This document shows positions 29,229-52,553 of a stretch of DNA of 64,000 bases, in pieces. The notes below the pieces were generated by a model, which was given only the letters and a program-made list of their open reading frames with translations, had not been told where the DNA came from and searched no databases. How positions within the stretch are numbered: position 1 is the first letter of the stretch; each line of letters opens with the position of its first letter. Source of the DNA: Bacilli bacterium (GTDB lineage: Bacteria; Bacillota_I; Bacilli_A; RF39; UBA660); contig JAFWYR010000019.1 in assembly GCA_017522615.1 (NCBI GenBank), positions 21,903 to 85,902 of the forward strand, in the 5' to 3' direction. The position numbers and the translations under genes are program-made.

Positions 29229-29370
29229 TAAGAAATTATAAGCTTTTAATTTTTCTATGTGTTAAAAAAAATAAAAAAGTGAAAAAAAAGCTTGAATAAA
29301 GGTTTGAAAAATGATATATTATTTTTAGAGTAGGAAAGCTACTTCGAAAATTTATAAGGAGGAAGAGAAA

Positions 29371-30009
29371 ATGGAATCAAAACACAAAAATGCGTTAATA
29401 GGAGCTTTACTTGCAGTAGTATTTGTAATGGCAGTAGGTTATGCTGCATTTGCTCAGCAACTTACAATCAATGGTACAGCTGAAATCACTTCAAGCTGGG
29501 ATATTCATTATGATCATTCACAAGATACAGTTGATGGTCAAGTAGTTACTAGTCCATCTTGTGTAAGTGGAATGGGTGGTACTACATGTGGTAGTGAATC
29601 TGATACTGCTAATCCTTACGGAACTATCACTTATACTACTGATACTGATGCAACTATTTCAGTTAAGTTAGTTCAACCTGGTGACAAAGTTACTTTCTAT
29701 TTAAAACCTAAGAACTTTGGTACTGGATTAAATGCTACTGGAACTATGTCTATTGCTGATACTACTACATCTGGTTATACAGGAATTACTTTACCTGCTA
29801 CGACAACTGGATTAAAAGCAGCTACTGTTGCAACTAAAGATCATATTCAATTTACAGTAACTCCAACATTTGATAGCAGTTTAGCACCTGGAGAATATGA
29901 TACTATTAAAGTAGAAGCTGAATACTTAAGTAATCAAACTACTAACGAAGTTATTCCACAAACTAAAGCTGGAATTAAAGTATCTATTGATTATACTCAA
30001 GTATCATAA
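29371..30009 (+). CDS. TasA/camelysin-family secreted fibre protein, paralog 1 (SipW-cognate signal peptide)
   Basis: N-terminus 'KHKNALIGALLAVVFVMAVGYAAFAQQLTINGTAEITS' is TasA-like (compare 'GGGTWAAFND...TFASGTLDL'). Core 'VQPGDKVTFYLKPKNFG' parallels TasA 'LKPGDKLTKDFQFENNG'. Own promoter and terminator. Confidence 0.7.
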   Translation: MESKHKNALIGALLAVVFVMAVGYAAFAQQLTINGTAEITSSWDIHYDHSQDTVDGQVVTSPSCVSGMGGTTCGSESDTANPYGTITYTTDTDATISVKLVQPGDKVTFYLKPKNFGTGLNATGTMSIADTTTSGYTGITLPATTTGLKAATVATKDHIQFTVTPTFDSSLAPGEYDTIKVEAEYLSNQTTNEVIPQTKAGIKVSIDYTQVS

Positions 30010-30021
30010 TAATGTTTTGAG

Positions 30022-30049
30022 AGATTACCGTTTTGGTAATCTTTTTTTT
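30022..30049 (+). terminator. Intrinsic terminator
   Basis: 'AGATTACC gtttt GGTAATCT' followed by T7. Confidence 0.65.
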
Positions 30050-30165
30050 GCTTTACACCCCTAGTGTATAGTATTATAATTTTTTGAGTAAACTACTTGA
30101 TGAAGTGTTAAAAAAATGTTATATTCAATTTAGGTTAAATATTTTATGTGTGAGGAGGAATAATT

Positions 30166-30783
30166 ATGGAGGCAAAACACAAAAATATGCTTATAGTTGC
30201 ACTACTTGCTTTAGTTATGATTATGGCCGTTGGTTATGCAGCATTTGCTCAAAATTTAAATATTAATAGTACATCTGAGGTTAGTTCTAAGTGGGAAGTT
30301 AAGATAACTAATATTGCTGTAAAAAAAGTTATGGTTGGTGGAGTAGAACAAGATGATATAACTGGTACAGCTAGTAATAAAACTACTTTTGCAGTTGATG
30401 AGGATTTCCCTTCAACTTCTGCAACAATTAACGAAGCTGGAACTATGGCTAGATTTAGTTCTGAATTAAGATCTCCTGGAGATTCTATAACTTATGATGT
30501 AACTATTACTAATAGTGGAACTTTAAATGCTAAAGTTGGGGATATTCAGTTTGAAGAAGCTAACGCAACAACTCACTGTATTAAAAATGGTACTACTTGT
30601 TTAGAGGATGATCCTATTTATTATGGATTTACAGGTCTTGCTCAAAACGATGTTATTACAGCTAATGGTGGAACTGCTCATGTTTATGTAACTGTAACTT
30701 ACGATGAAAATGTAACTTCACAACCTGAAGCTAATATTGAAAAAGATGCTACTTTAAGAGTAGACTGTGTACAGGCACAATAA
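30166..30783 (+). CDS. TasA/camelysin-family secreted fibre protein, paralog 2
   Basis: 'KHKNMLIVALLALVMIMAVGYAAFAQNLNINSTSEVSS'; core 'RSPGDSITYDVTITNSGTLNAKV'. Confidence 0.7.
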   Translation: MEAKHKNMLIVALLALVMIMAVGYAAFAQNLNINSTSEVSSKWEVKITNIAVKKVMVGGVEQDDITGTASNKTTFAVDEDFPSTSATINEAGTMARFSSELRSPGDSITYDVTITNSGTLNAKVGDIQFEEANATTHCIKNGTTCLEDDPIYYGFTGLAQNDVITANGGTAHVYVTVTYDENVTSQPEANIEKDATLRVDCVQAQ

Positions 30784-30809: not shown

Positions 30810-30866
30810 GTATTGATTGTATTTTTTTTTTATGTTATATTAATAATAGGATAGGAGAGTGTTATA

Positions 30867-31481
30867 ATGGCTAAGCCAAGAAAAGTTGAGAAAAAAGATA
30901 CTAGTAAGGATGAAATTTTTAAGAATGTAATGATTGGAGTTTTAGTTGCAATAATTGTTGTCATGGGACTTGGATATGCAGCTTTTACTCAGCAACTTAC
31001 TATTAATGGTACTGCAGAGATAACAAGTAAATGGGATGTTCATATCAAATCTATTGTTCCTGATAAGAATGCTACTTCAGTTACTGAAGAGGGTAATGTA
31101 AGATATACTTCTGCTGGAAGTATTAGTTCTTCTGTATTAAACGCAAATACAGCTGAATTTTCTGCTGTTTTAGTTGCTCCTGGGGATACTGTTAATTATA
31201 CTGTAACTGTAGAAAATAGTGGGACATTAGATGCTAAAATTGATACTAATGGTATTGTATTTAGTGATTTAACACAGATGAATAAACTAGCTAATAATAC
31301 AGCTGATGATGCTATAGTATTTAGTTATTCTGGTATTGGTGATGGTACTGTTATTAATAAAAATGGTGGAACTAATGTATTTACTATTTCTGTAACTTAT
31401 AATTCTAGATTTACATCACAACCAGAAGGTGGACAACTTAGAAAGAATTTAGAAATGATTTTAAATTATATTCAAGCTTAA
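30867..31481 (+). CDS. TasA/camelysin-family secreted fibre protein, paralog 3
   Basis: 'VMGLGYAAFTQQLTINGTAEITSKWDV'; core 'VAPGDTVNYTVTVENSGTLDAKI'. Confidence 0.7.
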   Translation: MAKPRKVEKKDTSKDEIFKNVMIGVLVAIIVVMGLGYAAFTQQLTINGTAEITSKWDVHIKSIVPDKNATSVTEEGNVRYTSAGSISSSVLNANTAEFSAVLVAPGDTVNYTVTVENSGTLDAKIDTNGIVFSDLTQMNKLANNTADDAIVFSYSGIGDGTVINKNGGTNVFTISVTYNSRFTSQPEGGQLRKNLEMILNYIQA

Positions 31482-31622
31482 TTTATATTAATAAATAAGC
31501 TTTTTTCTGTTTTATTTAAAAAAATAATTTTTATTTTAAAATGTGTTGTAAAAAGAAAAACTATGTGTTATAATTTATTATAGTAGGAGTAGCACGATTG
31601 CTATTTCAAAAGGGGTCATAAT

Positions 31623-32762
31623 ATGAAAAAGAACTTAATCATTTATGGTCTTCTTATAGGTTATTTACTATTGAACACGTTTGTTCTTTTGCCTATGAAT
31701 TTAAATTATTACAATGAAATTATTAATCCTTGTTTATGGATGATGATTTGCGGTGTTAGTGCTTTTCTAAGCAATGGTGCATCGTTAAGAATAAAAGGTG
31801 AAAGAGATAAAATTCAAAGTTTGATAATAGTAATGATAATTTATGTTATTTGTTACTTTTTACTTGGTTTGGTGTTCGGCTTTGAGAAGACTCCGTATGC
31901 TAAGGATGTACTTAGTATACTTCGAAATTTATGGTCGTTTGTAGGAATTGTATTTTTTCAAGAATTTATTCGAGAAACAGTTGTTAGAAATGAAAAAAAG
32001 AATATACTTAATTATTTGATTATTGTTGTACTGTTTACTTTCTTACAATTAAATTTATCAAATTTTGCTTCAAACTTTTCAGATGTTAAAACTACATTTA
32101 TATATGCTTCTACAACTTTGATTCCGGGTTTTTTGGAAAGTGCGATATTGACTTATTTGGTATATATTGGTGGCTTTAAAGCTAGCATTATATATAGACT
32201 ATTTGTAATGGTTCCTCCATTTATTGTACCAATTATTCCTAGTTTGGACTGGTTTGGTATTGCGATGATGGGAATTGTACTTCCTATGGGTGTATATATT
32301 TATTTGAATTATATACATGTTAAAAGGTCAGAACAACTTTCTAGGAAAGAAAGGCGAAAATATAATCCAGTTGTATATGTTCCGGTGTTTGTATTTATCG
32401 GACTATTAGCAGGATTTGTTGTTGGTTTGTTTAAATATCAACCAATAGCAGTTGTTTCTGGAAGTATGTCTCCGACATTTAATAGGGGAGATGCAGCAGT
32501 TATAAGAAAATTAACTACACAGGAAAAGGATAAGCTTAAAGTTGGAGATGTAATCCAATTTGTAAGTGGTACTAAATTTGTTATTCATAGAATTTATGAT
32601 ATTTCAAATGATGAGTATGGAAATAAGCTATTTATCACTAAGGGTGATCATAATAATGCTCCAGATGTTGGTAAGGTACATTTAGAAGAAGTAAAAGGAA
32701 AAGTTTCATTTATTATTCCACTAATCGGTTATCCATCAGTATGGCTTAGTGGAGCAATTTAA
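31623..32762 (+). CDS. Fusion protein: N-terminal ~7-TM membrane domain plus C-terminal archaeal-type signal peptidase I (SipW-like)
   Basis: C-terminal ~110 aa carry the SPase I box B 'VVSGSMSPTF' and 'GDHNNAPD' (box D-like). The N-terminal 270 aa are polytopic and hydrophobic. Own extended -10 promoter 'TGTGTTATAAT' at 31564-31574. Confidence 0.7.
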   Translation: MKKNLIIYGLLIGYLLLNTFVLLPMNLNYYNEIINPCLWMMICGVSAFLSNGASLRIKGERDKIQSLIIVMIIYVICYFLLGLVFGFEKTPYAKDVLSILRNLWSFVGIVFFQEFIRETVVRNEKKNILNYLIIVVLFTFLQLNLSNFASNFSDVKTTFIYASTTLIPGFLESAILTYLVYIGGFKASIIYRLFVMVPPFIVPIIPSLDWFGIAMMGIVLPMGVYIYLNYIHVKRSEQLSRKERRKYNPVVYVPVFVFIGLLAGFVVGLFKYQPIAVVSGSMSPTFNRGDAAVIRKLTTQEKDKLKVGDVIQFVSGTKFVIHRIYDISNDEYGNKLFITKGDHNNAPDVGKVHLEEVKGKVSFIIPLIGYPSVWLSGAI

Positions 32763-32781: not shown

Positions 32782-33891
32782 ATGACAAAAGCAAAGCGAA
32801 AAGAAAATGAAAACAAAGTTATTTTAAAACAGTGGGTTAGGGTATTTATTTTAATTGTTACTATAGCTGTTATGATTACTTCTATAGTTTCAATTGCTAA
32901 ATCTTTAAATCCAGAAGTGATTATGAATAAAAAACTATATTCATATAATTACAATTCTGGTATGAATTATAAGGTATATTTGAAAAACAATAGTTTTTTC
33001 ACTTCGCCTTATATGCCAATGAATAAACAATATATTACTTCAATTATCGATCATATTGAGGTAGAAGCAAAGTATGATTTTACTAGTGATACTGATTTAG
33101 CTTATGACTATAGTTATAGTATTAAAGCTACTGCTAGAGGAATGGCTGAAGACTCTGATGGTAAGAAGATCGATGTATGGTCTAAAGAGTATCCTTTAGT
33201 ACCTGAGACTAAAAATACTGGTACTGGTAGAAAGGTTACTATTTCTAAAACATTTAATGTAGATTATAATTATTATAATCAAGTACTTACTGATTTTCGT
33301 AATCAATTTGGATTATCTGTAGATGCTAGAGTAGATGTTACATTTAATGTTAAGATTAATGGTGGTATGCCTGGCGCTGCGACTAAATCATTACAAGAAA
33401 ATAAATCTATGACTTTACAAATGCCTTTACTTGTTCAAACATTAAAGATTAAACCTGACTTTGTAAATAATGGTGGAGATACAGTATATGAAAAATTAGA
33501 TGATCAAGGTAAAAAGATAGATGTTAATTTATTAGTAATTGGTGTATTATTGTTAGCTGTTTCTATTATTGTACTTATTAAAGTTGGTAAGAGTTTACTT
33601 GTTGTAACTAGAAAATCTGAATATATTTTAGCTGTTAACAAGATTCTTAAAGATTATGGTGACATTATTGCTGAAACTCACAATATGCCTGATTTAAATA
33701 AATATGATATTGTTAATATTAAAAACTTTGTAGATATGGTTGATATCGAAGAAGAATTACATTCACCTATTATCTATTTTGAAATTGAAGAAGATTCTAA
33801 ATGTGTATTCTTGATTCTTAATGAGAATACTGCTTATAGATTCTTACTAAAAGAATCAGATTTCGATCATTTCAACGCTAAATCTAAATAA
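32782..33891 (+). CDS. Bitopic membrane protein (TM near the N-terminus and near residue 250), TasA-locus associated, unknown function
   Basis: 369 aa; TM 'VFILIVTIAVMITSIVSIA' and TM 'LLVIGVLLLAVSIIVLI'; extracytoplasmic beta-rich middle segment; cytoplasmic acidic tail. Coupled 19 nt after the SipW fusion. Confidence 0.45.
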   Translation: MTKAKRKENENKVILKQWVRVFILIVTIAVMITSIVSIAKSLNPEVIMNKKLYSYNYNSGMNYKVYLKNNSFFTSPYMPMNKQYITSIIDHIEVEAKYDFTSDTDLAYDYSYSIKATARGMAEDSDGKKIDVWSKEYPLVPETKNTGTGRKVTISKTFNVDYNYYNQVLTDFRNQFGLSVDARVDVTFNVKINGGMPGAATKSLQENKSMTLQMPLLVQTLKIKPDFVNNGGDTVYEKLDDQGKKIDVNLLVIGVLLLAVSIIVLIKVGKSLLVVTRKSEYILAVNKILKDYGDIIAETHNMPDLNKYDIVNIKNFVDMVDIEEELHSPIIYFEIEEDSKCVFLILNENTAYRFLLKESDFDHFNAKSK

Positions 33892-33900
33892 TAGTATATG

Positions 33901-33925
33901 AAAACGAGATTATATCTCGTTTTTT
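33901..33925. terminator. Bidirectional intrinsic terminator (perfect 22-nt palindrome flanked by A-run and T-run)
   Basis: 'AAAACGAGATATATCTCGTTTT' lies between the convergent genes 32782-33891 (+) and 33910-36042 (-). Confidence 0.6.
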
Positions 33926-36042: not shown

Positions 36043-36138
36043 ATTAAAGTTCCTTTCAAAATTCTCTCATATTATACCATAGTTGATTGACTTATGCATT
36101 TAATTATTTTATAATTTATATAGGATAGGTGATTGGTA

Positions 36139-36558
36139 ATGAAGAAAAAGGGTTTTACTTTAGTCGAATTATTATTAGTTATTGTTATTATAGGATTAAT
36201 TGCGCTTATAGTATATCCATCAATACTTAGAATTATCGGTGATGCGAGAACTAGTTCATATGAAAACCAGGTAAAAATAGTTGAAAAAGCTGCTAGAGCA
36301 TGGGGATATAAGAATGCTTTATTATTACCTGATGGTAGTGGTTCTACTGATAAGGAAAAATACGGCTGTTTAAAATTATCTGTTTTAACATCTGGAGGTT
36401 ATCTTTCTGTAGATGAGGTAAAAGATCCTAGAACTACTGGTAAGAATTTGACTGGTGCGGTTAGAATTTCATATTCTAGTGGACAGTATGTATATGAATA
36501 TGTCGATGAGTTAAATGATTTAATTAGTAATGATAGTAGATGTACGGTTTACAATTAA
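36139..36558 (+). CDS. Type IV pilin / ComGC-like pseudopilin precursor
   Basis: Class III signal 'MKKKGFTLVELLLVIVIIGLIA' (prepilin peptidase site G|FTLVE with Glu+5). 139 aa. ATG 36139 with 'AGGTGA' SD. Confidence 0.75.
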   Translation: MKKKGFTLVELLLVIVIIGLIALIVYPSILRIIGDARTSSYENQVKIVEKAARAWGYKNALLLPDGSGSTDKEKYGCLKLSVLTSGGYLSVDEVKDPRTTGKNLTGAVRISYSSGQYVYEYVDELNDLISNDSRCTVYN

Positions 36559-36592: not shown

Positions 36593-37054
36593 ATGGGAGA
36601 TTTTTTGAAAGCACATAGAAAAGGAATTAAAATTGGTTTTCTTGTATTTTTTGTTATTATAATTTTGATTAGTATTTGGTTATTTGTTATGCCAACATTT
36701 AAGAAAAATAAATATGGTGATAGATTAAAAGATTTGAGTAAACACAAGATTTCGAATGAAGTTGTTAATAAAATTAAAGATAAAGCTAATGGTAATGATA
36801 GTGTTAAAAAGATAGATTATAATAGAGAAGGTAGAATTCTTTCTTTTATCATAACTGTCGATAGTAATTTTGGAGTTGATCAAGCTAAGGAATTTGCTAA
36901 AGATATTTTAGATGAGATTAGTGATGATAATAAAAAATACTATGATATTCAAGTATTAATTACTAGTGATGAATTAAGTGATAATTATCCAATTATAGGA
37001 TATAAAAATAAAAATAGTGATGAATTTAAATATGGGAATGCAGGTGGAAATTAA
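36593..37054 (+). CDS. Membrane-anchored protein, unknown function
   Basis: Single N-terminal TM 'IKIGFLVFFVIIILISIWLFVM'; 153 aa; ATGA-coupled to the downstream GGDEF-like gene. Confidence 0.4.
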   Translation: MGDFLKAHRKGIKIGFLVFFVIIILISIWLFVMPTFKKNKYGDRLKDLSKHKISNEVVNKIKDKANGNDSVKKIDYNREGRILSFIITVDSNFGVDQAKEFAKDILDEISDDNKKYYDIQVLITSDELSDNYPIIGYKNKNSDEFKYGNAGGN

Positions 37055-39081
37055 TGAGTAAGAAAAGTAAAATAATTCTCGGAGTCATAATATTATTCAG
37101 CGTTGTTATTGGTCTTTTGTATTTTTTTATGAATGAGGATAATAATACTTCGCTTACTGTTTCACAAAAGAAATGGATTGAAAATAATAAAAATAGTGTT
37201 ATTGATTTAGCTGTTTTGGGTGGAATTCCAGTATTAAATGAAAATGGTAATGGTTTATTTTTGGAATTTATTTCTTCTTTAGAAAAAGAGACAGGTCTCG
37301 AATTTAATGAGCTTTCATATACAAAAGGGGAGAAAGCTGTTTCTGATTATTCGCTTGAGGTTAGTGACAATACTAATAATGGAATACTTTTTTATAGAGA
37401 TAATTATGTTATAGTAACTAAGAAAAAAATATATTTTAATGACGTTACTGAAGTTTCGAATTTGAAAATTGGTGTATTGAAAGGTGCTTCAGCTGATATT
37501 AATAATTATTTATATGGAAGTAATAATTTAGTATTTACTGGATATGATGATATTCCATCGATGTTTACTGATTTAAATGGAGATTTAGTAGATGGTATTG
37601 TCGTACCTAAATTAGATTATTTAAAGACTATTTTAGAGTATGATTTGAATATTGCTTATAATATCGATGAGTATCCAATTAATTATGTTTTTAAGTTTGG
37701 AGATAATGAAAAGTTAAATAAAATATTAATTAAATATTTTGATGGATATAAAAAGAAAAAATTTGATAAAGCATTTAATAAATATTTAGCTAATGCATAT
37801 TTTACTTATGAAAAAATTGACGAAAAAGAACAAGCTTCTTTTAGAAGTAAAAGATATAGTTATGGCTTTGTGTATGACGAGCCTTATATGATGAATGTAA
37901 AAGGAAATTTAGTTGGATTTAATTATTCATTTATTAAAAAATTTGCGAATGCGGCAAATATAGAAGTTGATTTTAAAAGATATTCTAGTAAAGAAAAGTT
38001 ATATAATGATTTTAATACAAATAAATTAGACTTTATATATGGCGATTTAAGTGTAGGTAAATATAAGATTAAGACTTATAGTACAGATCCTATTTATAAT
38101 AATAAAGTTACTTTAATTACTAAAGGTAGAACTGATTTAACGGTTAATAATATTTCTTCTTTAAATGATGCAACTGTTATGGTTGTGAAAGATAGTTCTG
38201 CCCATAAATTTTTAAAGAAAAATGGAATTAGAACTAAGACTTATGAGACAACTTCTTCACTTGTAAATAGTTTATCTGGTGATAAAGTTGCTTTAGTTGA
38301 TTCATACGTATATGATTATTTTGTAAGAAATAATCTTAAAGATGCGATTAAACTTAAAACAATTGATATTCAAAGTGATTTTGGCTTTGTTTCTAGAAAT
38401 ATAAAGGAAAATGAAATATTTAATAGATTAATGGATTTTTATATTTCTTTTGTAAGTAGTAATAAAATTGTAAATGAAGGTTATAAAAAAATCTTTTCTT
38501 CAAATAATAATCTTATGATGTTACAAGTAACATTAAGTATTTTAGTAATTATTTTAATAGGAATTATTATATTTTTACTTTTCTATTTACTTAAGAAAAG
38601 AGGAAAATATGATAATAAATTATCTAAAGCTGATAAGCTTAGATATGCAGATTCGATGACATCTCTTAAAAATAGAGATTATCTAAACGACAATATTTCT
38701 AGATGGGATGAAAGTAAAGTTTATCCACAGGCTATTATTATAATTGATTTAAATAATATAGCTTATATAAACGATAATTTTGGACATGCTGAAGGAGATA
38801 AGGTAATCGTCGAAGCTGCAGGTGTTCTTATTAAAAATCAAATGTCTGATAGTGAATTAATCAGAACTAATGGTAATGAATTTTTGGTATTTACTATCGG
38901 TCATGAAGAGAAAGATGTAGTTACATATATTAGGCGATTAAATAAAGAATTTAAAGAACTTTCTCATGGTTTTGGAGCTGCTATTGGATATAGTATGATT
39001 AATGATGAGATTAAGACTGTCGATGATGCAGTTAATGAAGCTACTATCGATATGCGAAGGAATAAAGAAGAAGTAAACTAG
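37054..39081 (+). CDS. Membrane receptor with tandem periplasmic solute-binding-like domains and a degenerate GGDEF domain
   Basis: N-terminal TM, ~480-aa extracytoplasmic region, second TM ('ILVIILIGIIIFLLFYLL'), then a GGDEF fold. It has 'SLKNRDYL' and 'IIIDLNNIAYINDNFGHAEGDKV', but the active-site motif reads 'RTNGNEF' instead of RxGG(D/E)EF. Confidence 0.7.
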   Translation: MSKKSKIILGVIILFSVVIGLLYFFMNEDNNTSLTVSQKKWIENNKNSVIDLAVLGGIPVLNENGNGLFLEFISSLEKETGLEFNELSYTKGEKAVSDYSLEVSDNTNNGILFYRDNYVIVTKKKIYFNDVTEVSNLKIGVLKGASADINNYLYGSNNLVFTGYDDIPSMFTDLNGDLVDGIVVPKLDYLKTILEYDLNIAYNIDEYPINYVFKFGDNEKLNKILIKYFDGYKKKKFDKAFNKYLANAYFTYEKIDEKEQASFRSKRYSYGFVYDEPYMMNVKGNLVGFNYSFIKKFANAANIEVDFKRYSSKEKLYNDFNTNKLDFIYGDLSVGKYKIKTYSTDPIYNNKVTLITKGRTDLTVNNISSLNDATVMVVKDSSAHKFLKKNGIRTKTYETTSSLVNSLSGDKVALVDSYVYDYFVRNNLKDAIKLKTIDIQSDFGFVSRNIKENEIFNRLMDFYISFVSSNKIVNEGYKKIFSSNNNLMMLQVTLSILVIILIGIIIFLLFYLLKKRGKYDNKLSKADKLRYADSMTSLKNRDYLNDNISRWDESKVYPQAIIIIDLNNIAYINDNFGHAEGDKVIVEAAGVLIKNQMSDSELIRTNGNEFLVFTIGHEEKDVVTYIRRLNKEFKELSHGFGAAIGYSMINDEIKTVDDAVNEATIDMRRNKEEVN

Positions 39082-40067: not shown

Positions 40068-40153
40068 ATTCATTTATATGAAATGCCTTTTTTTGTTTTT
40101 AACTTTGTTTCTTTTATAAAAAGTGGTATAATGATTAGTGATTGAGGTGTTAT

Positions 40154-42199
40154 ATGAATAATTTTAGTAAGAAGGCGAAGAAATTATTTAAAAATGTTAA
40201 GGAGAAGGTTATTTATTTTTTTAAGAACAATGTTTTGTTTTTTGCGTTTGTTATATCTTCTTTATTTAACGGAACTTTACTTAGATTTTTAACAGTAAAA
40301 AATTATACTAATTTTAGTCCTATACTTGCTGATTTATCTTTTATTTTGTTAGTAGGTTCTTTAGGATATTTATTTAAACCTAAAAATAGATTTAGGTATT
40401 ATATTATTTGGTCAATTATTTTTACTTTAGTTTGTTTAATAAATTCAGTTTATTATACTAATTATGTTTCTTTTACATCTTTTTCACTCCTTGCAACTAG
40501 TCTTCAGATTTTTGGAGTAAGTGATGCACTTCAAACGATTATGGAGCTTAAAGATTTTAGTTATATTTGGGCACCTTTGATGCTTATATTTTTACATATT
40601 AAGCTAAAGAAAAATGGATATTATGATAATTTTAAAATTAATAAAAATTATAAGGTTGGAGTTTTTAAAGTAATGCTTGCAGGATTAATAAGTTTAATTA
40701 TGTTTGCTTTTACTTTAACTGGTACAGATATTAGTAGACTTTATAAGCAGTGGAATAGAGAATATGTTGTTATGAAATTTGGTATTTATGTTTATCAAGG
40801 TAATGATTTGATTGCTAGTTTAAAACCACAGATTAGTCCATTATTTGGATATGATAAGGCAGCTCGTGAATTTAGAGAGTATTATAAAGAAAATGAATCT
40901 GAACATAAAGAAAATGAGTATTCTAATATACTTAAAGATAAAAATGTAATTGTTATTCATGCTGAAAGTATTCAAAATTATTTATTGGATACTAAGATAA
41001 ACGATAAAGCAATTACACCTAATTTAAAGAGACTTGCAGATGAGGGAATGTATTTTTCTAATTTCTATGCACAGGAAAGTGTTGGAACTAGTAGTGATAC
41101 TGAATTTACATTTAGTACTTCTTTACTTCCTGCTAGTAGTGGTACTGTGTTTGTTAGTTATTATGATAGATATTATCCTTCTATTCAAAAGATTTTAAAT
41201 AATAATGATTACTTTGTATTTAGTATGCATGCGAATAAAGGAAATTATTGGAATAGGGAAGCTATGCATAAATCACTTGGATATGATACATTCTATTATT
41301 ATGATAAAGATTATAAGTTAGACGATATGGTTGGACTTGGTTTATCTGATAAATCATTCTTTAGACAGTCAGCTAAAAAGATTGGTAAGATATCTTCTAA
41401 AAATGATAATTTTTATGGACTTATGATTATGCTTACTAATCATACTCCATTTGATGGTATTACAGAAACTGATTTAGATTTAACTTATAGATACAATAAG
41501 AAAGATGAGACAACAGGAGAAGAGACAGAAGTTGTTAATGATTATTTGAAAGATACTACTTTAGGTAAATATTTTACAACCGCACATTATGCGGATGAAG
41601 CTATAGGAGAATTTGTCGAAGAACTCGATGCTGAGGGAGTTTTAGATGATACGGTTATAGTTATATATGGAGATCATGATGCGAAGATAAAAAGAGGAGA
41701 ATATGATTTTTATTATAATTATAATCCAGAGACTGATTCTAAAAGAGATAAAGAAGATCCTCTTTATAAAGAATATACAAAATATGATTATGAATTAAAT
41801 AGAAAAGTTCCATTTATTATTTGGACTAAGGATGAAGAATTAAAGTCTAAAATTAATAAGGAAATTAAAACAGTAACTGGTATGTATGATGTTTTACCAA
41901 CATTATCTAATATGCTTGGGGTAGAGAATAGTAAATATGCTTTAGGACATGATGTATTTAGTACTGATGATCATTATGTAATATTTCCTAACAGTAACTG
42001 GGTTACTGATAAAATGTATTATGATAGTCAAAACGGTGAGGCATTTACTTTAGATGCAAATGATGTTATAGATGCTGATTATATTAAAAAATATACTGAG
42101 ATGGCAGAAAAAGAAATTGCCGTGTCTAATGATATTATAGTTCATGATTTGATAAAGAAAACGGAGGAGTCTAGTAAGGTAATAAAAGGAGGCAAATAA
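40154..42199 (+). CDS. LtaS-family lipoteichoic acid synthase / sulfatase-fold phosphoglycerol transferase
   Basis: 5 N-terminal TM helices followed by an extracellular sulfatase domain ('VIVIHAESIQ', 'NFYAQESVGTSSDTEFT' nucleophile-Thr region, 'GDHD'). ATG 40154 with 'GAGGTG' SD. Confidence 0.8.
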   Translation: MNNFSKKAKKLFKNVKEKVIYFFKNNVLFFAFVISSLFNGTLLRFLTVKNYTNFSPILADLSFILLVGSLGYLFKPKNRFRYYIIWSIIFTLVCLINSVYYTNYVSFTSFSLLATSLQIFGVSDALQTIMELKDFSYIWAPLMLIFLHIKLKKNGYYDNFKINKNYKVGVFKVMLAGLISLIMFAFTLTGTDISRLYKQWNREYVVMKFGIYVYQGNDLIASLKPQISPLFGYDKAAREFREYYKENESEHKENEYSNILKDKNVIVIHAESIQNYLLDTKINDKAITPNLKRLADEGMYFSNFYAQESVGTSSDTEFTFSTSLLPASSGTVFVSYYDRYYPSIQKILNNNDYFVFSMHANKGNYWNREAMHKSLGYDTFYYYDKDYKLDDMVGLGLSDKSFFRQSAKKIGKISSKNDNFYGLMIMLTNHTPFDGITETDLDLTYRYNKKDETTGEETEVVNDYLKDTTLGKYFTTAHYADEAIGEFVEELDAEGVLDDTVIVIYGDHDAKIKRGEYDFYYNYNPETDSKRDKEDPLYKEYTKYDYELNRKVPFIIWTKDEELKSKINKEIKTVTGMYDVLPTLSNMLGVENSKYALGHDVFSTDDHYVIFPNSNWVTDKMYYDSQNGEAFTLDANDVIDADYIKKYTEMAEKEIAVSNDIIVHDLIKKTEESSKVIKGGK

Positions 42200-51200: not shown

Positions 51201-52553
51201 ATGAGACAAAGTGGGAGAGATAAAAGAAATTATTTAATTATTGGACTATGTGCCGTAGTAGCAATAATGGCAGTAGGATTTGCGGCATTTAGTCAGCAGC
51301 TAACAATTAATTCAACATCGGAAGTAACAAGTTCATGGTGTGTAGGATTTGATACAAGTAAGACTACTGATTATGTAGCGACTCCAGGACTATCTGGAGC
51401 TACTACACCAACAGCAACAATGTCATATAGTGGAAATACTTGCGGAAGTGATAATCTTCAAACAGGAGCAAGTTTATCTGCAACATTTAAACAACCAGGG
51501 GATCAGGTAGTATATACATTTACAATTAAGAATGCATCAACACTTAATGCCAAATTAGATAGTATAAATGAGAATTTAACAACATCAAATTCAGCTATAG
51601 AGTATGAACTATCAGGAGCTAAGGCAAATGATATTCTTGGGCCAAATGATACTACGACATTAATAGTAACAGTAAGATATAAAGATAGTATAACTAACTA
51701 ACCAGAAGTAACAACATGGGGACTTGAGTTAAAACTTAATTTTTCACAGACAAGTGATTCACCAGTTCCACCAGTGCCTACATATACAGTTAATGATTTA
51801 AAAGCAAATACTGTCACAACAGGAGATGGACTTTATGATAATGGTGATGGAACATATACTTATAAAGGAAGTAATCCTGCTAATTATTTAAGCTTTGCAG
51901 GAAATATTTGGAGAATACTTGGAATAGATTCAACTGGTATTAAAATTATTTCTAATGAAAGAATAGATTTAACAGGTTATTCTGGCGTAGTAGGATCAAA
52001 TAGTTTACTAGGTCAATTTGATGGACAAGGACTTAGAGATTCTTCTAGTAATGGTGCAGGTGGAACATACTGTTCACAAGGGTCATATGGATGTAATATT
52101 TGGTCAAGAGATTATACACCATCTGGAGACTATACAAATGGTAGTTATACAGGAACTGTATTATTAGATTCAGAGCTTAAAACATTTTTAAATGGAACGT
52201 ATTATACTAGTACTCTTAATTCAAATTCAAATATAATAGATGGTACATATAATGTAGGACCATATAATAATGAATCATCATATACATGGACAGGTAAAGT
52301 AGCCCTTTTAACTGCTCCTGAGTATAGGGCAGCAGGAGGCTCATCATCATATCTTAAAAAGTCCTTTAATTGGTGGCTTTTGTCTCCGAGCGCGAGTAAT
52401 GCGTACAGCGTGTTCTGCGTTTATAGTGGCGGCGACATCACGGGCAACGGCGCGCACTACAGCAGTGGTGTCCGCCCTGTTCTCTATCTTTCATCAAATA
52501 TCACACTTTCGGGTTCAGGAACAGACTCTAATAATGCTTTCACAATTTCATAA
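51201..52553 (+). pseudogene. TasA-like protein (paralog 4) fused in frame, across a single TAA, to a C-terminal ~280-aa Gly/Ser/Thr/Tyr-rich domain with a GC-rich 3' end
   Basis: N-terminal 166 aa: 'LCAVVAIMAVGFAAFSQQLTINSTSEVTSSW' plus 'KQPGDQVVYTFTIKNASTLNAKL'. TAA at 51699-51701 sits within '(TAAC)3'. The same frame continues 'PEVTTWGLELKLNFSQ...' to 52553. The final ~150 nt are ~58% GC. Confidence 0.55.

Follow-up and report, generated by a model that had tools for sequence, protein, structure and literature searches.

A signal peptidase I fused to a membrane domain of predicted CAAX protease-like fold in a fibre operon of a Bacilli bacterium

This report concerns a gene in a stretch of 64,000 nucleotides (referred to here as the window; 27% guanine plus cytosine, GC) from contig JAFWYR010000019.1 of a Bacilli bacterium (assembly GCA_017522615.1). 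The gene, at positions 31623-32762 of the plus strand, is a single uninterrupted open reading frame (ORF) for a protein of 379 amino acids (aa), the C-terminal part of which is a type I signal peptidase (SPase) and the remainder a polytopic membrane domain, termed here the N-domain. The gene lies in an operon of the AbpX/TasA-like donor-strand fibre type, composed of three paralogous genes for fibre subunits, the peptidase gene and a gene for a DUF5305 accessory protein. Our reading is that the protein is a dedicated SPase of this operon whose fused pseudo-protease domain docks the signal-anchor of the subunits, and we give this reading as a whole a probability of about 0.55. Its parts differ in strength. 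The enzyme is very probably a dedicated peptidase for the AbpX-like subunits, and its position among TasA-like fibre genes gives good grounds for a role in the processing of fibre subunits. On the basis of structural modelling we are highly confident that the N-domain has the fold of the CPBP (type II CAAX protease) family; for its proposed role in non-proteolytic docking we consider the odds to be about even.

The SPase domain was recognized through a match of aa 251-376 to TIGR02228, the model for archaeal-type SPase I (94.6 bits against a cut-off of 51.85). Together with the continuity of the ORF, this match bears out the proposal of a first-pass annotation, made from the DNA letters alone, that an SPase domain forms the C-terminus of a 379-aa protein. 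Alignment to human SEC11A (1e-10) places S281 (in SGSM), H322 (in VIHRI), D342 and D348 (both in KGDHNNAPD) on conserved positions; the respective codons are at 32463-32465, 32586-32588, 32646-32648 and 32664-32666 (+). These four residues are without variation in family alignments of 62 and of 120 members, and Peptidase_S26 is matched by all 62 members of the smaller one. Judged by such sequence criteria, the domain belongs to the archaeal or endoplasmic reticulum (ER) type of SPase I (S26B), in which His replaces the bacterial Lys as the general base. The SipW equivalog model NF046067 returned 68.7 bits, which is below its cut-off of 190; the enzyme would work like SipW, yet is not a SipW orthologue. 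The catalytic domain is encoded by 32424-32762 (+), with a short C-terminal helix (370-378) at its end, and the SPase's own membrane anchor, which is the ninth transmembrane (TM) helix of the protein (TM9, aa 249-267), by 32367-32423 (+); the anchor is preceded by the cytoplasmic basic loop KRSEQLSRKERRKYN. The NCBI record identical to the 379-aa product is entitled 'MAG: signal peptidase I [Bacilli bacterium]', where MAG denotes a metagenome-assembled genome.

The protein, of which the N-domain comprises aa 1-248 (encoded by 31623-32366 on the plus strand), was modelled with AlphaFold2 from 62 diverse members of the family, with a predicted local distance difference test score (pLDDT) of 92.6 and a predicted template modelling score (pTM) of 0.87. 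The model predicts eight TM helices in the N-domain (residues 2-25, 30-49, 60-85, 96-123, 128-142, 155-183, 185-201 and 210-236), followed by the anchor helix, a beta-rich catalytic domain (272-365) and the short C-terminal helix, a region that runs about 12 residues longer in other members. The first-pass annotation had described the N-terminus as polytopic with about seven TM helices; its polytopic nature stands and the count rises to eight, plus the peptidase anchor. The basic loops at 50-59, 124-127 and 237-248 predict a topology in which the N-terminus is cytoplasmic and the catalytic domain faces outward. The fold of the model resembles that of the CPBP/Rce1 group: the fold-match table lists Staphylococcus aureus SpdC/LyrA (6u0o_A, 13.5; 210) and Rce1 of M. 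maripaludis (4cad_C, 12.8; 210), with TMEM147 (6w6l_4, 6.8; 144) as the next membrane protein, and the other high fold scores come from the peptidase domain (SipA 13.4, SEC11 10.9, LepB 10.2, and LexA/UmuD). The eight-TM fold common to Rce1 and SpdC was found in the N-domain. Scans against Pfam and NCBIfam matched nothing in residues 1-250, either in the query or in the 62 members, and a profile of the N-domain gave zero matches to PDB sequences at E<=10. Identity to SpdC (LyrA), the partner of SagB (PDB 6U0O), and to Rce1 (PDB 4CAD) is ~10%, with no similarity at the level of hidden Markov models (HMMs).

Active CPBP enzymes carry the motifs EExxxR, FxxxH and HxxxN/D (PMC12260438), and the CPBP core is built from TM4-TM7. 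Three residues of TM4 in the N-domain are near-invariant among the 120 members, these being N102 (120/120; codon 31926-31928, +), E114 (117/120; 31962-31964, +) and R117 (116/120; 31971-31973, +), and E114 and R117 may occupy the structural position of CPBP motif 1. The histidines of motifs 2 and 3 are missing across the family, and the N-domain is, by this sequence evidence, most likely a pseudo-protease. With the fold of a CPBP protein and no catalytic histidines, it therefore resembles the non-catalytic homologues SpdC, LnsB and SpbR.

The putative clients of the peptidase are encoded immediately before it by three paralogous plus-strand genes, at 29371-30009 (212 aa; N-terminal HMM E 1.2e-32), 30166-30783 (205 aa; it shares the sorting motif found at the N-terminus of the first; HMM E 4.4e-29) and 30867-31481 (204 aa). 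The first carries the signal and donor-strand motif '...VFVMAVGYA|AFAQQLTINGTAEITS', where the bar marks the predicted cleavage site, and the third is modelled by AlphaFold2 as a beta-sandwich (58-203) behind an N-terminal helix, with a weak match to TIGR04089. The stretch 'KN-LIG-LLA---VM-VGYAAF-Q-L-INGTAEITS-WDV', followed by the core 'PGD-V-Y-V---N-GTL-A', is common to all three. Among 68 subunit homologues there is little or no variation at K19, N20, L26, M33, G36, Y37, A38 and F40, and the signal plus donor strand is much more conserved (entropy 0.71 bits) than the mature domain (2.02 bits), although this contrast is partly inflated because a word-indexed search favours conserved N-termini. 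On account of that bias we turned in addition to substrates identified solely from their gene context, and in these, from loci of 25-52% GC, the pattern 'G-Y-A-[AVL]-[FW]-x-Q-x-L-x-[IV]-x-G-[TS]' is kept. Larger proteins with Big_2, LRR_5 and CBM_2 domains (in distant loci L004, 3824-4897; L008, 3064-4926; and L009, 2833-3636) carry the same GYA-A-F-type motif at their N-termini; they probably serve as tip adhesins or anchors and would be cut by the peptidase as well. An archaeal pilin was the top Foldseek match of the subunits, but a reading of them as type IV pilins was rejected: they have no G/A at -1 and no Glu at +5, and there is no prepilin peptidase in the operon.

The subunits can be compared with two known classes of donor-strand fibre. 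The sequence of AbpX from P. abyssi, given in the supplement of a January 2026 preprint, contains '...IGLTYA|QWSETLSLSATIS...' (bioRxiv 10.64898/2026.01.04.697558). The third paralog aligns to this AbpX: hhalign of the subunit family gives E 8.9e-5 and a probability of 60% over 147 columns, and BLASTP gives E 0.003 and 30% identity over 105 aa. These alignments pair 'GYA|AFAQQL' with the AbpX sequence 'TYA|QWSETL' and thus span the AbpX cleavage site and donor strand as well as a 'PG..VN.T...EN.GT' core, and with moderate confidence they suggest that the subunits are homologous to AbpX. The preprint reports a conserved aromatic at mature position 2 of AbpX homologues, and, for position 4 of AbpX, an acidic amino acid that is tied to calcium binding (bioRxiv 10.64898/2026.01.04.697558); at donor-strand position 4, where AbpX has E4, the window paralogs and the substrates of distant loci have Gln. 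The same preprint assigns ten TM helices to the SPase I encoded in bacterial and archaeal AbpX loci, and proposes DUF5305 as an SPase accessory subunit, in a manner that recalls the eukaryotic complex (bioRxiv 10.64898/2026.01.04.697558). The window thus shares with AbpX loci the donor-strand subunits, a dedicated many-TM SPase I of TIGR02228 type and an adjacent DUF5305 gene, but the window clade has nine full TM helices and a truncated C-terminal helix in place of ten.

In the second class, represented by SipW, TasA and TapA of Bacillus subtilis, a dedicated archaeal-type SPase I likewise lies beside a fibre subunit, and polymerisation is by donor-strand exchange. The cleavage site of TasA is 'WA|AF', and an aromatic residue at P2' is shared with the 'YA|AF' of the window. 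An aromatic at P2' reportedly requires an enzyme of SipW type; it makes TasA a client of SipW that LepB cuts poorly. The differences are that SipW has ~190 aa and no CPBP-like domain, and that the window operon has no TapA and has DUF5305 instead.

From these comparisons a mechanism can be proposed in which the peptidase, active, outward-facing and of the Ser-His-Asp type, would most likely cut the subunits at GYA|AF, so that the second mature residue is aromatic, as it is in TasA and AbpX; the donor strand at the new N-terminus would thereby become available for polymerisation. The pseudo-protease domain would have two functions in this scheme, namely to hold the anchor helix of the peptidase itself, as SpbR holds SpsB and SpdC holds SagB, and to bind the unusually conserved signal-anchor of the subunits, which would give specificity and position the scissile bond. 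With DUF5305 joining, the ensemble would constitute a small prokaryotic signal peptidase complex of several parts. In the eukaryotic complex (SEC11A/C, SPC22/23, SPC25 and SPC12; PDB 7P2P/7P2Q) the accessory parts are non-homologous as far as tested, and the additional helices in the window protein are those of a fused CPBP-fold domain. It is plausible that cleavage may be coupled to recognition or to polymerisation. A more far-reaching and tentative version, which we think will probably not hold in full, is that the CPBP-like domain is an intramembrane receptor that recognizes, by its sequence, a novel type of sorting signal at the N-terminus, K-N...L...M..GYA|A[FW]xQxLxIxG[TS], and that together with DUF5305 the complex passes the newly exposed donor strand straight to the growing fibre. 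If so, partnerships between CPBP pseudo-proteases and SPases would be ancient and widespread and not a staphylococcal peculiarity.

Several points weigh against the proposed docking by a pseudo-protease. PF02517 is matched by none of the 62 members at E<=1, so that a link to CPBP proteins at the sequence level is absent. The near-invariance of N102, E114 and R117 exceeds what a passive scaffold needs, and these residues could form a catalytic or ligand-binding site. The analysis shows the identities of the domains, the fold, the conservation of residues, the synteny and the conserved sorting motif, whereas the GYA|AF cleavage site, the docking role and the coupling to polymerisation are features that we infer. 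Finally, the sole characterised pair of a CPBP protein and an SPase, SpbR and SpsB, is inhibitory and not stimulatory (PMC12260438). In S. aureus the SPase I SpsB is bound in a 1:1 complex by SpbR, a degenerate homologue of CAAX proteases; the SpsB TM helix contacts TM5 and TM7 of SpbR, the SpsB ectodomain is also bound, and cleavage by SpsB is inhibited in vivo and in vitro, whereby the length of lipoteichoic acid is controlled (PMC12260438). The likeness to the window protein lies in the physical tie between a dead type II CAAX-protease homologue and a type I SPase. The tie involves two proteins in S. aureus and one polypeptide here, however, and SpsB is a general peptidase of the Ser-Lys P-type, whereas the present enzyme is of the Ser-His-Asp type and lies in a fibre operon. 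Moreover, the motif residues of SpbR (its motif 2 is FIYLD; PMC12260438) can be mutated without effect, in contrast to the near-invariance of the three TM4 residues.

The precedent of SpbR, by the same binding to TM helix and ectodomain, leads to the alternative that survives best, which is that the CPBP-like domain is a built-in brake. The peptidase would then be restrained, and the subunits would remain anchored in the membrane and unpolymerised until a signal or a partner, such as DUF5305 or the growing fibre, relieved the restraint. The presence of a GGDEF sensor protein near the operon would suit a regulated enzyme, as would the enzymes of cyclic di-GMP (c-di-GMP) metabolism that have been seen in AbpX neighbourhoods (bioRxiv 10.64898/2026.01.04.697558). 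Nevertheless, a permanent covalent inhibitor at a ratio of 1:1 seems wasteful, recognition accounts more readily than inhibition for the conserved signal-anchor of the substrates, and no regulatory ligand site was identified in the domain; a brake therefore seems to us unlikely, and docking of the subunits is preferred.

A second alternative, which we consider rather improbable, is that the N-domain is still a protease, a variant glutamic intramembrane enzyme based on Glu114 that would make a second cut, either to clear the signal peptide or to trim the subunit. The three near-invariant residues lie on TM4, as does CPBP motif 1, and active CPBP enzymes can serve as sorting proteases, the myxosortase MrtX being one of the family. 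The arrangement of the residues speaks against this idea, since the TM4 sequence [QIKRE]-E114-[YF]-x-R117 has a gap between E and R that is one residue shorter than in EExxxR. The motif-2 site on TM5 (F138xxx-) holds E, D, N, S or Q across the family, and Gln142 in the window protein, and the only N-domain column with His or Cys in at least 30% of the 120 members is position 94, a His in a loop. Rce1, an active glutamic protease, has EExxxR, FxxxH and HxxxN, which the N-domain does not retain in this form, and the homologues of comparable degeneracy (SpdC, LnsB and SpbR) are non-catalytic. An active CPBP enzyme was accordingly rejected for want of a conserved catalytic His or Cys, and so was an exosortase or archaeosortase, for which there is no conserved Cys or His for the Cys-Arg-His set and no Pfam or NCBIfam match. 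CPBP proteins and exosortases are members of one Pfam clan. MrtX and the exosortases/archaeosortases resemble the window protein in being polytopic membrane proteins that recognize a conserved sorting signal containing a TM segment, but their signals are C-terminal and they themselves catalyse the cleavage, whereas here the signal is N-terminal and a fused SPase would make the cut. The first-pass annotation had likened the fusion to exosortase/sortase logic in a different fold. That comparison misses the point, since the predicted fold is that of CPBP/Rce1, a family that includes the myxosortase, and it overlooks the dead CPBP scaffolds that bind single-pass enzymes, an SPase I (in the SpbR-SpsB pair) among them. 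No canonical CPBP gene was found by regular-expression search in the window and 92 loci.

The conservation of the gene neighbourhood bears on a third alternative, according to which the protein is a general housekeeping SPase with an additional membrane domain that lies beside the fibre genes by chance or convenience. The DUF5305 protein of the window (369 aa; 32782-33891, +; PF17231, 2e-18; TM segments near residues 18-40 and 246-270) is encoded downstream of the peptidase gene at a distance of 19 nt and is trailed by a terminator-like hairpin (33900-33924); the two genes appear to form a unit of their own that ends at this hairpin. We assembled a set of 80 loci from metagenomes, which span 26-71% identity and 22-64% GC. 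In 65 of these 80, DUF5305 is the next gene downstream of the fusion, and in three more it is nearby; of the 11 loci that lack it, nine offer under 1 kb of sequence on the downstream side. The order of subunits, peptidase and DUF5305 is held across 22-52% GC and down to ~26% identity, distant members on contigs of their own included. It is true that no other SPase I gene is found within the 64-kb window and that relatives are on genome-sized contigs of ~1.3 Mb, which hints at small genomes. But a gene order so widely kept, substrates that bear a specific conserved motif, and the specialisation of bacterial enzymes of TIGR02228 type such as SipW make a housekeeping function a poor prospect in our estimation.

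The possibility that an error of sequencing or assembly has made one ORF of two genes, as the first-pass annotation had considered, can be practically dismissed, since the ORF is continuous and both domains are within one ORF in 79 of the 80 independent loci and in 126 of the 150 best cluster representatives matched by the N-domain. The latter count comes from a search with residues 1-250 alone against 1.84 billion cluster representatives (E<=1e-3), which gave 875 matches, nearly all of 375-400 aa; the other 24 of the best 150 are all shorter than 320 aa. The homologous fusions whose existence in public data the annotation had left to be established thus occur widely, and the fusion is a trait of the family, whose members fall into hundreds of sequence clusters of metagenomic origin (gut, rumen and environment). 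The sole split locus (L052/L093, 1912-3062), with an ORF of 289 aa for the N-domain, a peptidase fragment of 76 aa and then DUF5305, has the look of a degraded gene and is probably a decaying fusion gene, not a natural version in two genes. The best candidate for a stand-alone N-domain gene, P0136, was rejected as a disrupted fusion gene. A genome scan with the single protein found two close loci only, and a profile search for further homologues returned mostly the same clade. Two loci of high GC content (L085 and L086, 63-64%) encode members of 412 aa, with neither DUF5305 nor a substrate detected there by HMMs; ~1.8 kb of downstream sequence is available for L085 and only ~0.7 kb for L086, and the two may represent a divergent or differently organised branch of the family.

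The architecture has already been mentioned once, in the January 2026 preprint, which devotes one sentence to the enzyme and makes no mention of CAAX, Rce1 or CPBP (bioRxiv 10.64898/2026.01.04.697558); a description of the fusion as a CPBP-SPase was not found in the literature searched. What is new here is the assignment of the fold, the conserved sorting motif and the link to SpbR and SpsB. Dedicated SPases for TasA-like biofilm fibres were known, and, since 2025, so was one dead CAAX-protease homologue that binds an SPase. Both elements are united here in one polypeptide, which can be regarded as a "Rosetta stone" for a functional partnership of CPBP proteins and SPases. It offers a concrete and testable hypothesis of how signal-anchored fibre subunits are selected and cut, and would provide a bacterial counterpart to the multi-subunit signal peptidase complex of eukaryotes.

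The peptidase gene has a sigma-A-type promoter at 31546-31574 (+), TTGTAA-17-TATAAT with an extended -10 TG. The motif alone is worth little because in DNA of 27% GC such sites occur at chance frequency (52 were found in the region and 52 expected). The TTG and TG-N-TATAAT elements show no variation, however, among eight related loci with 57-71% protein identity, in surroundings of divergent spacer sequence, and the claim that the gene has its own promoter is sustained by this conservation. A long, structured 5' untranslated region had also been proposed; the leader is not long (~48 nt), and its structure is modest, consisting of one small hairpin at 31586-31607 (+; -9.8 kcal/mol, z -1.8), followed by the ribosome-binding site AAAGGGG at 31609-31615 (+). 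A hairpin is present at the same leader position in seven of the eight relatives, with different arm sequences, and it is a reasonable guess that it serves as a 5' stabilising stem-loop. An Rfam scan of 28.5-37 kb gave no family match.

Each subunit paralog is likewise preceded by a promoter-like site, at 29292-29320, 30052-30080 (11/12 matches) and 30840-30868 (with TG). A strong terminator-like hairpin follows paralog 1 (30019-30045), and an AT-rich hairpin with a T-run at 31474-31502 (+; -7.2 kcal/mol, z -2.1), which is below the GC threshold of the general terminator scan, is a possible weak terminator after paralog 3. These signals suggest that expression of the paralogs is tuned separately and that gene 1 specifies the major subunit.

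A fourth gene with the sorting signal is located at a distance, at 51201-52553 (+), and encodes 'IMAVGFAAFSQQLTINSTSEVTSSW' (HMM E 1.5e-21) and an AbpX-like domain. It contains an in-frame TAA at 51699-51701, aligned to the Gln codon of 'TSQPE' in the paralogs, beyond which the same frame runs through the missing last strand, a Pro-rich linker and a DUF6273 domain (51774-52553). The gene looks like one for a tip or adhesin-like subunit of ~450 aa that is broken by one nonsense codon, which could reflect a pseudogene, an error in the MAG consensus or readthrough.

Downstream of the operon, a small solitary type IV pilin resembling ComGC/GspG, with an N-terminal methylation motif, is encoded at 36133-36558 (+) behind a strong promoter-like site (36087-36115) and is followed by a single-TM protein (36593-37054). 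The GGDEF protein, a membrane-bound diguanylate cyclase with SBP_bac_3 sensor domains, is encoded at 37054-39081 (+), three genes from the operon. Farther on, at 40142-42199 (+), lies the gene for a polytopic LtaS-like protein with a sulfatase domain (PF00884, 2e-34); in S. aureus, LtaS is a substrate of SPase I that is under the control of SpbR, the CPBP homologue (PMC12260438).

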